Shown here: piece by piece, positions 3,166 through 60,648 of the stretch
How positions within the stretch are numbered: the stretch's first letter is position 1
Layout of the letters: each line of letters begins with the position of its first letter
Assembly (NCBI GenBank): GCA_009993005.1
Contig: JAACUH010000067.1
Span: 6,848 to 70,847 of the forward strand
Direction: 5' to 3'
DNA: 64,000 nucleotides
Source of the DNA: Rhodobacterales bacterium
GTDB taxonomy: Bacteria; Pseudomonadota; Alphaproteobacteria; Rhodobacterales; Rhodobacteraceae
Translations under genes and position numbers: made by a program
The notes under the pieces: model-generated
Seen by the model: the letters and a program-made list of their open reading frames with translations, nothing else
The model's database searches: none
Told to the model about the DNA's origin: nothing

Positions 3166-4238
3166 CAGAGCGGCCCCGTGACATCGGCAAGCCGCACCGT
3201 CTCGCCTCTGTTGCGCGCCGATTGCGCGATGGCGACCATCGCGCGGACCGAGGCGATGCCATCCTCCAGATCGGCGCCGCCGGTGCGCTGACCGGTGAGC
3301 ACGGTGTCGGCAAAGCCTTCCACCTGGCGGCGGTAGAAATGCCCGTCTGCGCCCAGCACACGGCGCGTGGTGCCGTCGCTTTCGTGAAAGATGTCCACTT
3401 CGGAGGTCTTGTAATACCAGGGATTGTAGGTTTTGGCCAGTATAGAGCCGTTTTCACCGTAAATCTGAAAGCCCTCGTGCCAGTCCATCCGCACCGCGAC
3501 GGTGAGGTCGAGGTGGCCGAGCACGCCATTGGCAAAGGTCACATCGACAAACCAGGTGCGGATGCCCGCGCGGTTCAGGAGACGCGCGGAGACCGCTTCG
3601 ATCTCGCCTCCGAAAAAGCGCGCGGTATCGACAAGGTGGCTGCCATGGGCGAGCATGTAATACCGGTCGAGGTCGGCCTTGGGGTTTTCTGCGGGTTTGC
3701 GGGCCTGGGACGAGGTGACCATCAGCGGCTGCACCGCGTCGGTCATCGGGTAGCGGTGGGTGCTGTCGCAATACCAGGCCTTGAGCGCGACCATTGCGTC
3801 CATTTCAGTCTCTGCAAAGGCCTTGGCGGCCTGAAGCCCGGCGTCGTAACGCTTCATGTGACCGACCTGGAGCACCAGCCTGCCCGCGACGCCGCGCAGG
3901 CTTTCGGCCTCTTCCACGCTGGTGGCGAGGGGTTTCTCGCAGAGCACATGCTTGCCCGCCGCCAGCGCCATGCGCGCGGCGGGGACATGGAAGGCGTCCG
4001 AGGTGGCGATGATCACCGCCTCGAGGTCGGGATCGGCGAGCATCGCGGCATAGTCCGCATAGCTGCGCGCCGGGGCGTGGGTGGCGGCCATCCGGTCGCG
4101 CAGGTCGTCGGCCACGTCGCAGATCGCGTAGAGCGTCGCATTGCGCGCCTTGGTGCAGCTTTCGAAATGGGCGGCCTGGGCGATGGGGCCGCAGCCGAGC
4201 ACGCCGATACGCAAGAGGCGGTCCTGTTTGGGGGGCAT
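3165..4238 (-). CDS. Gfo/Idh/MocA family oxidoreductase
   Basis: ORF track 3165..4475, trimmed to ATG at 4238 (MPPKQDRLLRIGVLGCGPIAQAAH Rossmann start, CEKPLA motif). The upstream 79 codons are low-complexity read-through. Confidence 0.85.
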   Translation of the reverse strand: MPPKQDRLLRIGVLGCGPIAQAAHFESCTKARNATLYAICDVADDLRDRMAATHAPARSYADYAAMLADPDLEAVIIATSDAFHVPAARMALAAGKHVLCEKPLATSVEEAESLRGVAGRLVLQVGHMKRYDAGLQAAKAFAETEMDAMVALKAWYCDSTHRYPMTDAVQPLMVTSSQARKPAENPKADLDRYYMLAHGSHLVDTARFFGGEIEAVSARLLNRAGIRTWFVDVTFANGVLGHLDLTVAVRMDWHEGFQIYGENGSILAKTYNPWYYKTSEVDIFHESDGTTRRVLGADGHFYRRQVEGFADTVLTGQRTGGADLEDGIASVRAMVAIAQSARNRGETVRLADVTGPL

Positions 4239-4265
4239 GGCGCCGGTCCTTTCGGTGAGGGGGGA

Positions 4266-4326
4266 GGGGGCGCTGCCCCCGCGCGCGTGCCGCGCGCCCC
4301 CCGGGATATTTGGGGCAAGATGAAGC
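4266..4326 (+). repeat. short structured repeat, copy 1 (GGGGGC-GCT-GCCCCC hairpin, GCGCGCG-TGC-CGCGCGC hairpin, CCCCCGGGATATTTGGGGCAAGATGAAGC box)
   Basis: Read directly from the sequence. It lies in the 95-nt spacer between the PfkB stop (4334) and the oxidoreductase start (4238). Related copies are at 21506, 41961, 59021(-) and 60382. Confidence 0.8.
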
Positions 4327-4333
4327 GGGGGGG

Positions 4334-5257
4334 TCAGCCCGGCGGCGGGGTCGGAGGGCTGTTGCCCTCCATCGGGCCGCGCACGGTCACGGCGCGGGCG
4401 CCGGCGGCATTGGCCTCGGACAGAGCGCGTGCAAAGGGCGTGCCGAGGGCGGTGAGGGCGATGTAGGTGGCGCAAAAGCAGTCGCCCGCGCCGGTGGGGT
4501 CGATCACGGTGGCGGGATCGGCCGGCAGGGAAATGACCGCGCGGCGGTCAGTGCCGATGCAGCCCGCGTCGCCACGCTTGAGCACGACGCTGTGCGCGTG
4601 GGGAAGGGCGGCGGCGAGGGCGGCGAAATCGGCGCCGGGCCAGAGTGCTGCGGCGTCTGCATCGGAGGGCAGGACGTGGTGCGACAGGGCGATGAGCGCG
4701 CGCAGGGTCTCGATGTAGCCTGCGTCGCGCAGGAGTTCGGGCCTGATGTTCGGGTCGATGGACAGAATGACGCCCTGCGGCACAAGTGAGTCGCAAACCG
4801 TGCGGGCGGTGGCGCGCAGGGCGGGGTCGCCCAGGGTCGAGCCGGAGATATGCAGATGGGTGACGCCGGCGGCGGCGAAACCGGCGACGATGGTCGCGGC
4901 GTCGGGCAGCATCGCGGCGGCGCTGTGGCCGATGTTGAACACGAAAGCGCGGCTGCCGTCGGAGGCATAGGCGACATGGGCGGTGCCTGTCGGCCTGTCT
5001 GTCACCGCGATCAGCCGGTCATCGACGCCATGCGCGCGCAGCCGGTCGAGGATCACGCGGCCGAAGGGATCGTCACCGACGGCCCCGGCAAAGACCGCCT
5101 GCCCGATGATCTGAGCGGCCTGGTCGATGAAGATGCCGGGCGCGCCGCTGGGAAAGGGGCCGATGTAGGGGGCGGGCCGCGCATGTTGCGTATCGGTGTC
5201 GGTGCAGACGAACTCTACCAGCAGCTCACCCAGCGCTGCGATGATCGGGCGGGACAT
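4334..5257 (-). CDS. PfkB-family carbohydrate kinase
   Basis: ORF 4334..5257 with the C-terminal DPTGAGDCF signature of ribokinase/PfkB kinases. Confidence 0.85.
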   Translation of the reverse strand: MSRPIIAALGELLVEFVCTDTDTQHARPAPYIGPFPSGAPGIFIDQAAQIIGQAVFAGAVGDDPFGRVILDRLRAHGVDDRLIAVTDRPTGTAHVAYASDGSRAFVFNIGHSAAAMLPDAATIVAGFAAAGVTHLHISGSTLGDPALRATARTVCDSLVPQGVILSIDPNIRPELLRDAGYIETLRALIALSHHVLPSDADAAALWPGADFAALAAALPHAHSVVLKRGDAGCIGTDRRAVISLPADPATVIDPTGAGDCFCATYIALTALGTPFARALSEANAAGARAVTVRGPMEGNSPPTPPPG

Positions 5258-6019: not shown

Positions 6020-7040
6020 AGTTGCGCTGGGCCTGGTCGATCAGCACCGAGATGATGATGACGACGCCCACGGAAATGAACTGCCAGAAGGGTTTGACGT
6101 TCATGAACACCAGCCCGTACTGGATGACCGCGATCACGAAGGCGCCCGCAAGCGTGCCCAGGATGGTCCCCGAGCCGCCGAAAAGGCTCGCCCCGCCGAT
6201 CACCACGGCCGCGACAGAATCGAGCAGCAGCGGCTCGCCCGCCTGCGCGGCCCCGGCGCTGAACCGCGCGGCATAGAGGAAACCCGCAAGCCCGGCGCAG
6301 ATGGCCGAAAGGATGTAGAGCTTCATCAGGTGGTTCTTCACGTCGATGCCGGCGCGGCGCGCGGCCTGTTCATTGGCGCCGATGGCATAGTTGTGCTGGC
6401 CAAAGCGGGTCTGGCTGAGCAGGTAGTGCATGATCAGCACGAACACCGCGGCGATGATGACGATATAGGGGATGTTCAGGATCTTGCCGTTGCCGATGGT
6501 GGACAGGAAACTGTTGCGCACCGGCACGGTGGTGCCGTTGGCAAGCAGGAAGGCCACGCCGCGCGCCACGCCGAACATGCCCAGCGTGCCGATGAAGGGC
6601 GGGATGCGCAGCCGCGACACCAGAAGGCCGTTGACCAGACCGGGGATGGCCGCGACGCCCACGGCGACCAGCATCCCGGTGAGCACCGCCATCGGCAGCG
6701 ACATGACGCCGCCGGCCCAGTTGATCACATGCGCCGCGACGACGGCCGCCAGCCCCATGATGAAACCCAGCGACAGGTCGATCCCGCCCGAGATGATGAC
6801 AAAGGTCTGCCCGGTCGCCAGCAAGAGCGGGACCACGGCAAAGATCGCGATGGATTGCAGGTTGAACGGGTTGAGGATGAACGAGCCGCCGAAATCGGCC
6901 CGGGCCCAGACCTCGAACCCGATGATGAGGGCGGCAAGGAACAGCCAGGCGCGCAGGTTGGCAATGCGCTGGAGCAGCGTCAGCTGCACATCGGCGTGGT
7001 CGGCCTGCGGCGCGACATGGGTCTCGGGGGCATGGGTCAT
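5994..7040 (-). CDS. sugar ABC transporter permease (CUT2 type)
   Basis: ORF 5994..7040. It is multi-TM, with the GQTFVIISGGIDLSLG motif typical of RbsC/FrcC-like permeases. Confidence 0.9.
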   Translation of the reverse strand: MTHAPETHVAPQADHADVQLTLLQRIANLRAWLFLAALIIGFEVWARADFGGSFILNPFNLQSIAIFAVVPLLLATGQTFVIISGGIDLSLGFIMGLAAVVAAHVINWAGGVMSLPMAVLTGMLVAVGVAAIPGLVNGLLVSRLRIPPFIGTLGMFGVARGVAFLLANGTTVPVRNSFLSTIGNGKILNIPYIVIIAAVFVLIMHYLLSQTRFGQHNYAIGANEQAARRAGIDVKNHLMKLYILSAICAGLAGFLYAARFSAGAAQAGEPLLLDSVAAVVIGGASLFGGSGTILGTLAGAFVIAVIQYGLVFMNVKPFWQFISVGVVIIISVLIDQAQRNYGGGRQSE

Positions 7041-21505: not shown

Positions 21506-21535
21506 CCGGCGGGGATATTTTTGGCAAGATGAAGC
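21506..21535 (+). repeat. short structured repeat, degenerate copy (3' box only: CCGGCGGGGATATTTTTGGCAAGATGAAGC)
   Basis: Read directly. It lies in a convergent spacer between the hypothetical gene and the VWA gene. Confidence 0.6.
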
Positions 21536-41939: not shown

Positions 41940-41960
41940 TCTCATGGACGGCGCCGGCGC

Positions 41961-42023
41961 GGGGGCTCTGCCCCCCGTCCCCGATGGGGACGTCCCCCGG
42001 GATATTTCGGGCCAAAAGATGGA
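41961..42023 (+). repeat. short structured repeat, copy in bchX/bchY junction
   Basis: The sequence is GGGGGCTCTGCCCCCCG + GTCCCC-GAT-GGGGAC hairpin + GACGTCCCCCGGGATATTTCGGGCCAAAAGATGGA. The 17-nt and 35-nt modules are identical to copy 60382. Confidence 0.85.
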
Positions 42024-43515
42024 TGCGGGTCTGCCTGTGGATGGCATGGGCTGTCATGCCGGGGCGGGTGCGCTGCAGGCGGCGGCGCGGGCGGCGGGCA
42101 AGTCCGAGATCCTGGATCAATATGCGCGGGACTATCCGCAAGGGCCGCATGACCAGCCACAGTCGATGTGCCCGGCCTTTGGGTCCTTGCGTGTGGGTCT
42201 GCGGATGCGGCGGGTGGCAACGGTGCTGTCGGGCTCGGCCTGCTGTGTCTATGGGCTGACCTTTGTCAGCCATTTCTACGGGGCGCGGCGGTCGGTCGGT
42301 TATGTGCCGTTCAACTCCGAGACGCTGGTCACGGGCAAGCTCTTTGAGGATATCCGCGAGGCGGTGCATGATATCGCGGACCCCGCGAATTATGACGCCA
42401 TCGTGGTGACGAACCTCTGTGTGCCGACTGCCTCGGGCGTGCCGCTGCGGCTTTTGCCGGATGAGATCAACGGCGTGCGGATCGTGGGGATCGACGTGCC
42501 GGGCTTTGGCATTCCGACCCATGCCGAGGCCAAGGATGTGCTGGCGGGCGCGATGCTGGCCTATGCGCGCAAGGAAATCATGGCGGGGCCGGTGGCGGCG
42601 CCTGTGGGCGGCAAGTCGGACCGGCCGACCGTGAGCCTTTTGGGCGAGATGTTTCCCGCCGATCCGGTGATGATCGGCGCGATGCTGGCGCCGCTGGGGC
42701 TGGCCGTGGGGCCGGTTGTGCCGGCGCGCGAATGGCGCGAGCTTTATGCCGCGCTTGACTGCGGGGCGGTGGCGGCGATCCATCCGTTCTATACGGCGGC
42801 TGTGCGTGAGTTCGAGGCGGCAGGGCGGCCCGTGGTCGGCTCGGCGCCGGTGGGCCATGACGGCACGGCGGCCTGGCTGGCCGCGATCGGCGACGCGTTC
42901 GGTCTGCCGGCTGACCGCGTCGCGGCAGCGCAGAACGCATTCCTGCCAGCGATCAGGGGCGCGCTGGCGGCGGCGCCGATCAAGGGGACGATCACGCTGT
43001 CGGGCTATGAGGGGTCGGAACTGCTGGTCGCGCGGCTGCTGATCGAGAGTGGCGCGGATGTGCCCTATGTCGGCACCGCCTGTCCGAAAACCCGCTGGTC
43101 CGCCGATGACGCCGCATGGCTCGAGGCGCGCGGCGTCAAGGTCAAGTATCGCGCCAGTCTTCAGGATGACCTGTCGGCGATGGAGGCGATCCGCCCCGAC
43201 CTCGCCATCGGCACGACGCCTGTCGTGCAGAAGGCCAAGGAGATGGGCGTGCCGGGGCTCTATTTCACCAACCTCATCTCTGCCCGGCCGCTGATGGGGC
43301 CGGCGGGGGCGGGTTCGCTCGGCCAGGTGATCAATGCCGCGATTGCGGGCAAGGATCGCATGGACAAGATGAAGGCGTTCTTTGCCGGTGTGGGCGAAGG
43401 CGACACCGCCGGGATCTGGGAGGGCAGCCCCAACCTGCGCCCCGATTTCCGTGCGCAGCATCAGAAGAAGCTCGACAAACTGGCGCGCGCGGCCAAGGCC
43501 GAGGAGATGATCTGA
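42019..43515 (+). CDS. bchY: chlorophyllide a reductase subunit Y
   Basis: Frame of ORF 41599..43515. ATG 42019 ([18 protein letters not shown]...) is the start closest to the conserved BchY N-terminus. In-frame ATGs at 41926, 41932 and 41944 would add a repeat-encoded extension. [17 protein letters not shown] is present. Confidence 0.9.
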
Positions 43516-57201: not shown

Positions 57202-59015
<1,814 letters not shown>

Positions 59016-59020
59016 CCCCG

Positions 59021-59071
59021 TTCATCTTTTGGCCAGAAATATCCTCGGGGGTCCGGGGGCAGACAGCCCCC
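59021..59071 (-). repeat. short structured repeat, inverted copy in bchN/bchB spacer
   Basis: The reverse complement reads GGGGGC-TGTCT-GCCCCC GGACCCCCGAGGATATTTCTGGCCAAAAGATGAA. It lacks the second hairpin. Confidence 0.8.
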
Positions 59072-59082
59072 GGCGGCCAGCC

Positions 59083-60648
59083 ATGAAGCTCACCGTCTGG
59101 ACATACGAGGGCCCGCCCCATGTCGGCGCCATGCGCGTCGCCACCGCGATGAAGGGGCTGCATTACGTCCTGCACGCGCCGCAGGGCGACACCTATGCCG
59201 ACCTCCTGTTCACCATGATCGAGCGGCGCAACCACCGCCCGCCCGTCACCTACACCACCTTCCAGGCGCGCGACCTCGGCGCCGACACGGCGCTCTTGTT
59301 CAAGGAGGCCTGCCGCGACGCGGTCGAACGCTTCGCCCCGCAGGCGATCATCGTGGGCGCCTCCTGCACGGCGGAACTGATCCAGGACGATCCCGCAGGT
59401 CTGGCCGAAACCATGGGCCTGTCGATCCCGGTGATCCCGCTCGAGCTTCCCTCCTACCAGCGCAAGGAAAACTACGGCGCGGACGAGACCTTCCTGCAGA
59501 TCGTGCGCCACCTTTCGCGCCCGCAGAACCGCACCGCGCGCGTGACCTGCAACATCCTCGGCGCCACCGCGCTGGGGTTCCGCCATCGCGACGATGTCGA
59601 GGAAATCACCGGCCTGCTGTCCGACCTCGGTGTCGAGGTGAATGTGGTGGCGCCGCTCGGGGCCACGCCAGCCGACATCGCCCGCCTGCCCGCGGCGCAT
59701 TTCAATGTGCTCCTTTACCCCGAGACCGCGGAAGCCGCCGCGCGCTGGCTGGAAAAGACCCATGGCCAGCCCTGGACGAAAACCGTCCCGCTCGGCGTCG
59801 GCGCGACCCGCGATTTCATTGCCGAAGTGCAGGCGATCACCGGGCTTGCGGCCACGGCCGATGAAGGCCGCCTGCGCCAGCCCTGGTGGAGCCGGTCGGT
59901 GGACAGCACCTATCTGACCGGCAAGCGGGTGTTCCTCTTTGGCGACGGCACCCATGTCATCGCCGCCGCGCGGATCGCGCGCGACGAGATGGGCTTCGAG
60001 GTCGCGGGGCTGGGCTGCTACAACCGCGAGATGGCGCGGCCGGTGCGGGCCCTGGCCAAGGCGATGGGCCTCGAGGCGCTGATCACCGACGACTACCTGG
60101 AGGTCGAGGCGGCGATTGCCGCTCTTGCCCCGGAGATGATCCTCGGCACCCAGATGGAGCGGCATATCGGCAAGCGGCTGGGCATCCCCTGTGCCGTGAT
60201 CTCTGCTCCGGTGCATGTGCAGGATTTCCCCGCGCGCTACAGCCCGCAGATGGGGTTCGAAGGCGCGAATGTGATCTTTGACACCTGGATCCATCCGCTG
60301 GTGATGGGGCTCGAGGAACATCTGCTGACCATGTTCCGCGACGATTTCGAGTTCCACGACGAGGCGGGTGCGTCGCATCACGGGGGCTCTGCCCCCCGCC
60401 GGCCTGCGGCCGACGTCCCCCGGGATATTTCGGGCCAAAAGATGGACGCGCCGGAGCCTGCGGTCGTGGCCGTTGCGACAGCAGACAATATCGTCTGGCT
60501 GGGCGATGCAGAGCGCGAGTTGAAGAAGATCCCGTTCTTTGTGCGCGGCAAGGCGCGGCGCAATACCGAAAGCTATGCGGCGGCGAAAGGGCTGAGCCAG
60601 ATCAGCATCGACACGCTTTACGAGGCAAAGGCCCATTATGCGCGATAG
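59083..60648 (+). CDS. bchB: light-independent protochlorophyllide reductase subunit B
   Basis: ORF track 58858..60648, trimmed to ATG 59083 ([43 protein letters not shown]). The C-terminal [14 protein letters not shown] domain is in the same frame. Confidence 0.95.
60382..60446 (+). repeat. short structured repeat, copy embedded in-frame in bchB
   Basis: The sequence is GGGGGCTCTGCCCCCCG + CGGCC-TGC-GGCCG hairpin + GACGTCCCCCGGGATATTTCGGGCCAAAAGATGGA. It is translated as ...[23 protein letters not shown]... within the BchB linker. Confidence 0.85.

Follow-up and report, generated by a model that had tools for sequence, protein, structure and literature searches.

Five copies of a probable mosaic interspersed DNA repeat in a 64-kb stretch of a Rhodobacterales genome

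Introduction

The BoxC/PIT/TMECO repeats of Escherichia coli are found between genes, at times as inverted pairs, and have no association with transposons, phages or plasmids (Holder et al., 2015; PMC4666352). These repeats form triplexes in vitro, and TMECO follows the pattern CCCTCNCCC-N3-6-GGGNGAGGG-N3-GGGNGAGGG, with stems of at least 8-9 nt (PMC4666352). In Rickettsia, the palindromic elements known as RPEs measure ~100-150 bp, and nearly half of them lie in open reading frames (ORFs) (PMC10969869). The repeat described here was found in a stretch of 64,000 nucleotides from a Rhodobacterales bacterium (assembly GCA_009993005.1, contig JAACUH010000067.1), referred to below, at its full length, as the window. 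Five copies are present, each built around an asymmetric box that in four of them is preceded by GC-rich hairpins. With a probability of about 0.65, they are members of a family of mosaic, interspersed DNA repeats in Rhodobacterales that resembles REP, BIME and BoxC.

A first-pass annotation had described the five copies as a structured short repeat family that could be given no family name, and both statements hold. The element is a member of none of the REP, MITE (transposable element of the miniature inverted-repeat type), TMECO or Rfam families, and the family was found described nowhere in Rfam or the searchable literature. Rfam returned nothing at its gathering threshold and no match overlapping any copy at E<=5, the literature searched contains no account of such an interspersed repeat family in Rhodobacterales, and these genera are not listed in a MITE review or in the supplements of the triplex paper.

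A repeat family of one bacterial order

The GC content of the window is 67.7%. The 8-mer GGATATTT occurs exactly five times on its two strands, each time within one box of the form GGATATTT-NN-GGC-(0 or 3 nt)-AAGATGRA, 21-24 nt long. Five matches to GGATATTTNNGGC compare with 0.01 expected, a number reached by none of 100 dinucleotide-preserving shuffles, and the hairpin GGGGGC-loop-GCCCCC is found solely at the four hairpin-bearing copies. The box has two lengths, 21 nt in copies 1 and 2 and 24 nt (…GGCCAAAAGATGRA) in copies 3, 4 and 5. All five copies lie at the positions and on the strands first reported for them. Direct reading likewise bears out the modules that copies 3 and 5 were said to have in common, one of 17 nt (41961-41977 = 60382-60398) and one of 35 nt (41989-42023 = 60412-60446), and the middle stems, which differ in sequence, fold as had been described.

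An exact-pattern scan with one genome per species located the box in at least 114 stretches, almost all of them from Rhodobacterales: Roseovarius, Rhodobacter, Paracoccus, Primorskyibacter, Thioclava, Gemmobacter, Defluviimonas, Sinisalibacter, Tabrizicola, Cypionkella and many metagenome-assembled genomes. Among the matches listed, a few isolated ones come from Clostridia and Planctomycetales; these have no flanks and are no more than chance would give. Plasmid matches are likewise confined to Rhodobacterales (Paracoccus, Roseinatronobacter, Leisingera and Roseobacter), and a search for an association with phages found just 8 matches in 2.9 million viral contigs. In related genomes the exact 21-nt box occurs 109 times, and a covariance model identifies 137 copies at E<=0.01 in 786 kb.

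The family consensus is CCCCC-N-R-GGATATTT-NN-GGCAAGATGAA-R-GGGG. Read 5' to 3' on the '+' strand, a copy opens with a hairpin made of a G-run and a C-run, to which a second hairpin, free in sequence, may be added; then come a C-run equal in length to the first G-run and the asymmetric box, whose conserved form family-wide is GGATATTT-NN-GGC(0-3 nt)AAGATGAA. Three architectures recur upstream of the box: a single G/C hairpin, a G/C hairpin followed by a free-sequence hairpin, and a hairpin-less type with a conserved GCCTCCGGCGG, which is that of copy 2 in the window and is found at many loci. Single copies number more than 100. Close inverted pairs, less than 200 nt apart, are tail-to-tail in 9 cases and head-to-head in 2-3, and some tail-to-tail pairs bracket a bidirectional terminator between convergent genes, as at locus L042 of R. 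capsulatus.

Two loci from different genomes hold a conserved segment of ~45 nt (CACGGTACAGG.GGG..CCGATGACCGTGCAAGGTGAAAGCGCC) between the members of a tail-to-tail pair (L104, 2110-2290; L107, 6340-6470); it has no Rfam match and may be an undescribed RNA or leader. At L031 (~1587-1720, +), three tandem units of 44 nt, each with a GCGAGGGGCTGGCCCCTCGC hairpin, adjoin a copy of the box, which indicates that the hairpin module can amplify in tandem by itself.

A box constrained as sequence

The box is AT-rich in DNA of ~68% GC. The two positions at which it varies lie side by side and show no covariation with anything nearby; their adjacency argues that the constraint is not a codon pattern. 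Pairing of these variable bases with the flanks was considered and rejected, as no covariation supports it. Being constrained as sequence, and not as codons or as a stem, the box looks like a sequence that is read directly, most simply by a protein. We know of no alphaproteobacterial operator that fits it, and promoter, IHF, DnaA and sigma-54 readings would not fit well either.

A box of this kind may serve as a binding site with a host function, recognized by a nucleoid-associated or other conserved protein, embedded in structure-forming DNA, kept by selection and copied only incidentally. Base-for-base identity across many genera, a free spacer of 2 nt between two half-motifs and the AT-richness of the box are all what such a site would show. 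Related species also have copies in the same spacer (e.g., L048/L051 and L036/L054), and transposase, target duplication and RAYT were not found in the loci examined. However, no operator known to us matches the box, orthologous copies decay freely in many lineages, some copies lie within coding linkers, and the distribution is patchy even among close relatives, as between the window and L121. A binding site maintained for the host is the best of the alternatives to an interspersed repeat, and still an improbable one.

Stem covariation and orientation

The variable stems were misaligned by MAFFT and RNAalifold, and the copies were therefore aligned with a covariance model. The model was built from 8 seeds, of which 5 are real and 3, length-adjusted by one G:C pair, served as search seed only. 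Standard pairs occupy 97.1% of stem cells, as opposed to 71.7% in shuffles, and none of 500 shuffles reaches the observed value. Changes on both sides are found in 164 stem cells (29.9 in shuffles), and all 8 pairs have double-sided, compensatory changes (6.3 in shuffles). An alignment fitted to the covariance model leans these counts towards structure, yet the margin is large, and when the stem partners are slid by 1-3 columns no more than 65% of the cells are paired. The stem adjoining the C-run has wholly different sequences among copies, including GTCGCGC, GCCGCCGC, CCCCGGAC and ATCGTCGT.

The strongest single case of covariation is that of the orthologous copies in the BchB linker of the window and of L124, L147, L184, L174 and L141. 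Their second hairpin differs from lineage to lineage and is self-complementary in each (CCGGCC/GGCCG, GCTGC/GCAGC, ATCAGCC/GGCTGAT, GCTGATCG/CGATCAGC, GTCGCCG/CGGCGAC), which shows that the palindrome is maintained. Its upkeep would be predicted by selection on the fold, by concerted evolution with other copies and by templated quasipalindrome correction at replication. As such correction in a DNA palindrome can also yield compensatory change, the latter does not prove selection on an RNA fold. The initial proposal that the fold is kept while the middle module varies is supported, with covariation well above chance. Single-sequence fold energies were no better than those of shuffles and are uninformative in DNA of 68% GC.

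Orientation relative to genes was counted with a GC3-based gene caller. In unidirectional spacers 25 copies are sense and 22 antisense; convergent spacers hold 29 copies and divergent ones 9. This is a REP-like pattern, in which promoter regions are avoided and transcriptional polarity is lacking. When set against the GC skew, taken over 8-kb loci, 84 of 120 copies have the box-sense strand as the G-rich one (84:36). The bias persists with one copy per locus (70:30, or 70 of 100; p=8e-5) and with the skew averaged over plus- and minus-strand genes separately (49:21, p=0.001). In the window the skew is positive, and four of the five copies are on the '+' strand.

The leading strand is usually the G-rich one, a general rule that is taken over here for these genomes and by which the box-sense strand would preferentially be the lagging-strand template. 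By analogy with the IS200/IS605 family, the skew-linked orientation suggests a role of replication and of single-stranded DNA at the fork; it fits equally well with selection against structure on one template strand. Taken together, the equality of sense and antisense copies and the tracking of GC skew argue against an RNA-level function as the driver, and show that the element acts as DNA and not as an oriented RNA signal.

These data bear on a cis-acting RNA element, that is, a stabiliser of mRNA 3' ends, a processing site or a terminator module. Stable GC hairpins with compensatory changes would suit it, as would the many copies that follow a stop codon and precede an intrinsic terminator (e.g., L042 of R. 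capsulatus). The purine-rich 3' flank of 15 of 127 copies is followed closely enough by a gene that its start codon lies 9-18 nt past the box, and some copies may abut or supply ribosome-binding sites. An RNA signal is nevertheless unlikely, and more so than a host binding site: orientation follows GC skew and not the direction of the neighbouring gene, two of the copies in the window (1 and 4) are antisense, no U-tract comes after the hairpins, Rfam is silent even at permissive thresholds, and fold energies equal those of shuffles.

Copies within and between bch genes

Three of the five copies lie in bch operons, as noted at first pass, a statement that proved correct and understated: copy 5 is in frame within bchB, and copy 3 is in or at the start of bchY. 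Copy 4 separates bchN from bchB. Compared with empty sites among 80 related loci, it is an insertion of 71 nt with ATGA on both sides; the empty site reads GGAGGCnGCnGAATGAAGCTCACC, and in most relatives the stop/start overlap has the form GAATGAAG. Translational coupling of bchN and bchB has probably been lost through this copy. The junction is empty in most relatives, including the closest, L121 (89% BchB identity), and filled in the window and ~20 other lineages, where the element has the same insertion point and orientation and is found at every stage of decay. On the BchB tree, filled and empty states are interleaved, which could reflect either several gains at a preferred site or a single old gain followed by repeated precise loss between the ATGA repeats.

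Copy 5 leaves the bchB ORF open, with the Oxidored_nitro domain (aa 12-406) on one side of the element and the PCP_red domain (aa 472-516) on the other. It occupies the inter-domain linker at about aa 433-455, a variable region in the alignment to solved BchB chains. Public gene calls on 22 metagenome contigs give it as a single gene of 521 aa. Metagenome contigs (ENA ERZ272933xx, JGI) are also the only records with exactly this BchB protein, so that the window appears to come from an uncultured lineage of Rhodobacterales. The linker element is shared by the window and at least five lineages (L124, L147, L184, L174 and L141) in one reading frame, GGxxP…PRDISGQKM. Because an independent insertion would share the frame with a probability of ~1/3 per lineage, common ancestry is the simpler reading of the linker copies.

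Copy 3 comes after the bchX stop and runs into bchY. Relatives of BchY that are 83-91% identical have a conserved N-terminal M(T/S)DEVTYD…VI… about 35-40 residues before GCHAG. The protein of the window lacks this M(T/S)DEVTYD..VI motif, kept in ~120 relatives, and has 40 element-encoded residues in its place. Three in-frame ATGs are possible starts of bchY (41926, 41944 and 42019), the public gene call using the first (529 aa). The one at 42019 belongs to the box of copy 3 and shares its frame with both bchY and the ATG upstream, at 41944. Judged by these frames, copy 3 would either be translated or supply the bchY start codon.

Spread of the element

The element has most likely spread, in the past or still, as a non-autonomous element whose box would be read by a conserved trans-acting protein. 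As with REP/BIME and IS200/IS605-type ends, single-stranded DNA at the replication fork may expose the hairpins. A GC-rich insert without stop codons is tolerated where it is harmless, including operon junctions and disordered protein linkers, and is translated in the latter. Hairpins in mRNA 3' ends, the lost bchN-bchB coupling and the possible bchY start codon would be secondary effects of the landing sites.

Several points weigh against an interspersed repeat with this history. Direct repeats in the flanks, for which the first-pass annotation had proposed a check, are family-wide no more frequent than in permuted flanks, and the sole case of a target-site duplication is the ATGA at bchN-bchB. 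Comparison of orthologous spacers, proposed alongside, did yield filled and empty states at that junction, but caught no recent insertion, and the patchy pattern there could be due to one old insertion that was precisely lost several times. Inverted pairs 0.6-4.6 kb apart were found to enclose no transposase, only ordinary housekeeping genes or an antitoxin-like ORF. A tblastn search with RAYT (4ER8, E. coli) gave no match in 1.5 Mb of related loci or in plasmid records of Rhodobacterales; RAYTs are reported to be rare in Alphaproteobacteria (PMC5581495). Exact conservation of a 19-base motif throughout an order is unusual for selfish repeats and fits a binding site with a host function as well. 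Finally, the orientation counts depend on a crude gene caller, and GC skew over loci of this size is a mere proxy for replication direction.

One of the longer inverted pairs, at L112 (6040-6730), flanks an islet of low GC with an ORF of 93 aa on the minus strand (6134-6415). The product is presumably Phd/YefM antitoxin-like, by eye from its sequence. Such an islet between copies resembles reported links of REP with toxin-antitoxin genes.

In a classical MITE, the box would be a terminal inverted repeat, the head-to-head dimer the full element, mobilized by the DDE transposase of a parent insertion sequence, and single boxes half-elements. The dimers at L040, L089 and L030 indeed have box-to-box inverted symmetry with ~35 bp per arm. 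Such dimers are rare, however, 2-3 as against more than 100 single copies, and tail-to-tail pairs are commoner than head-to-head ones. A single copy is asymmetric, with hairpin at one end and box at the other, and has no terminal inverted repeats; target-site duplications are absent, and no parent insertion sequence lies between the longer inverted pairs of the loci. A MITE is a rather remote explanation, behind the RNA element. An artefact of chance or low complexity in GC-rich DNA is already refuted for practical purposes: although short G/C hairpins are common in shuffles (45/128, against 70/128 real copies, at a threshold of 5 bp), the excess of boxes in the window, the exact boxes in related genomes and covariation far above controls leave it next to no room. 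Of the outcomes that the first-pass annotation had named as fatal to a repeat family (no further copies, covariation at chance level, or identity with a fragment of a known insertion sequence or prophage), none was observed.

A triplex-type relation among the runs

In 66 of 88 copies, the longest G-run in the 5' arm of the hairpin is as long as the C-run that precedes the box; under permutation the mean is 32 copies and the maximum 46. The agreement is found in 41 of 52 copies where the hairpin adjoins the C-run, and in 25 of 36 where the two are more than 14 nt apart. The same loop types (GCT, TCT, TGTCT, TTT) are found with runs of 4, 5 and 6, which implies that run lengths have changed in a coordinated manner more than once. 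Where the purine arm contains an interior A (GGAGGGG, GGGGAGG, GAGGGGG, GAGGGG), a T stands at the mirror position of the C-run in 8 copies from at least 3 subfamilies. The mirror position is A or G in 5 further copies and a direct-repeat or antiparallel arrangement is seen in none, the copies informative in this respect being few.

A mirror repeat cannot arise by copying and, as far as it can be read from the letters, is the signature expected of a third strand parallel to the purine arm. The module has the three-block layout that goes with it: the third block mirrors the purine arm, the loops are short and the centre is 3 nt long. The proposed triplets would be C+.G:C and T.A:T on the box-sense strand, and G.G:C with A.A:T or T.A:T on the complement. 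For the purine motif, either A or T is canonical at the mirror position. A plain Watson-Crick duplex between the G-run and the distal C-run was also considered; it is possible for pure runs (L147, L141) and disfavoured by the mirrored A/T interruptions. That the G-run/C-run/C-run module is kept because of an intrastrand triplex, of the pyrimidine motif where the box-sense strand folds and of the purine motif where its complement does, is put forward tentatively, as an idea with the odds against it.

If true, the element would be a replication-oriented, triplex-forming repeat with a docking box for a conserved protein, similar to BoxC, and tolerating or using translation through linkers. The three-way covariation would then constitute evolutionary evidence, from a natural repeat family, for a selected bacterial DNA triplex.

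Features of the window

The coordinates of the copies and their host genes are collected in Table 1. Copy 1 had been placed correctly between the PfkB stop and the oxidoreductase start of a minus-strand operon, and the end of copy 2 falls 15 nt before the stop of a DUF2201 gene on the minus strand. A perfect hairpin without a box, GGAGGG-CTGTTG-CCCTCC, lies at 4352-4369, 26 nt past copy 1 and inside the 3' end of the PfkB coding sequence. ORFs at 4013-4318 and 4310-4789 of the window, and at 7579-7791 of L069, run through copies, and in their products the box reads ..PRDIFGQ.., ..PNIPGG.. or the like. Spurious small proteins over copies are thus a likely outcome of automated annotation.

Table 1. 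Parts of the five copies and their host genes, in window coordinates.
Feature	Position	Strand	Basis
Copy 1, whole; between PfkB stop and GFO/IDH/MocA start of minus-strand operon	4266-4326	+	
Copy 1, hairpin 1: GGGGGC-GCT-GCCCCC	4266-4280	+	sequence, folding
Copy 1, variable hairpin 2: GCGCGCG-TGC-CGCGCGC	4281-4297	+	folding; aligned to covariance-model stem
Copy 1, C5 run, same length as hairpin-1 G5 run; candidate third strand	4298-4302	+	
Copy 1, box, 21 nt, GGATATTTGGGGCAAGATGAA; antisense to PfkB/oxidoreductase operon	4304-4324	+	
Copy 2, hairpin-less: GAAGCCTCCGGCGG + box GGATATTTTTGGCAAGATGAA	21499-21533 (box 21513-21533)	+	
bchY, host or neighbour of copy 3	41944-43515	+	
Copy 3, hairpin 1	41961-41975	+	sequence, folding
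Copy 3, hairpin 2: CGTCCCC-GAT-GGGGACG	41976-41992	+	sequence, folding
Copy 3, C5 run	41994-41998	+	sequence
Copy 3, box, 24 nt, GGATATTTCGGGCCAAAAGATGGA	42000-42023	+	
bchN-bchB junction with copy 4; ATGA at 59012-59015 (old stop/start overlap) and 59083-59086	59012-59086	+	
Copy 4, box, 24 nt, minus-strand reading GGATATTTCTGGCCAAAAGATGAA	59021-59044	-	
Copy 4, run complementary to C5 run (59047-59051), 3-nt centre, hairpin CCGGGGGC-loop-GCCCCCGG (59053-59073)	59047-59073	-	
bchB, host gene of copy 5, 521 aa	59083-60648	+	Pfam; full-length match to solved BchB chains
Copy 5, hairpin 1	60382-60396	+	sequence, folding
Copy 5, hairpin 2 around CGGCC-TGC-GGCCG	60397-60415	+	sequence, folding
Copy 5, C5 run	60417-60421	+	sequence
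Copy 5, box, 24 nt, translated (P)RDISGQKMD	60423-60446	+	within BchB linker

Implications

Rhodobacterales include model phototrophs, denitrifiers and abundant marine bacteria. A newly defined repeat aids the annotation of their genomes, as spurious ORFs of the PRDIFGQ type become recognisable and starts such as that of bchY can be set correctly. The copies also provide natural presence/absence experiments in well-studied genes: a split bchN-bchB coupling, a peptide in the BchB linker and a replaced BchY N-terminus. Two mechanistic leads emerge, as the covariation of run length and mirror positions suggests selection for a triplex, and the orientation by GC skew suggests single-stranded DNA at the fork.

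Comparison with known systems

The hairpins of the element differ from intrinsic terminators in being followed by a C-run and the box instead of a U/T tract, and separate terminators sometimes stand after the box. Like RPEs, in-frame copies are translated as an extra peptide in tolerant regions, here the BchB linker and probably the BchY N-terminus. In contrast to RPEs, which form sequence families particular to Rickettsia and are ~150 bp long (PMC10969869), the element is ~60 nt long, mostly intergenic with few coding copies, and hosted nearly always by Rhodobacterales. The pneumococcal BOX and rhizobial RIME elements are likewise modular, with conserved ends, a variable number of middle modules and strong predicted structure, but their sequences, host range and module logic are probably unrelated to those of the Rhodobacterales element.

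With BoxC and TMECO, the layout of purine arm, loop of 3-7 nt, pyrimidine arm, 3-nt centre and third block is shared, loops vary more than stems, and the copies are intergenic with some inverted pairs and without a link to transposons, phages or plasmids. However, the blocks of the Rhodobacterales element comprise 4-7 triplets instead of 9 and have other sequences, so that the TMECO pattern does not match them. Their purine-pyrimidine-third order corresponds to class III (class I on the complement), while TMECO is of class II. Blocks 2 and 3 may be separated by a second hairpin, and the module is always tied to the AT-rich box. TMECO has no strand bias (13:10), whereas the family described here, with its putative triplex, follows GC skew.

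From REP, BIME and REPIN the element differs in having no GTAG-type tetranucleotide 5' of the palindrome, where positions are not conserved. What is conserved is instead the 21-24-nt asymmetric, AT-rich box 3' of the hairpins, and it is kept across a whole order and not one genus. In REPINs the inverted doublet is the replicating unit; here, nine tail-to-tail and 2-3 head-to-head close pairs stand beside more than 100 single copies. As in REP, an imperfect palindrome of 20-40 nt forms a hairpin with compensatory variation. In common with REP, BIME and REPIN, the Rhodobacterales element is a short, GC-rich hairpin repeat, mostly extragenic, located at gene ends and in convergent spacers, occurring singly or as inverted pairs of mosaic modules, without target duplications and with compensatory changes in its stems.

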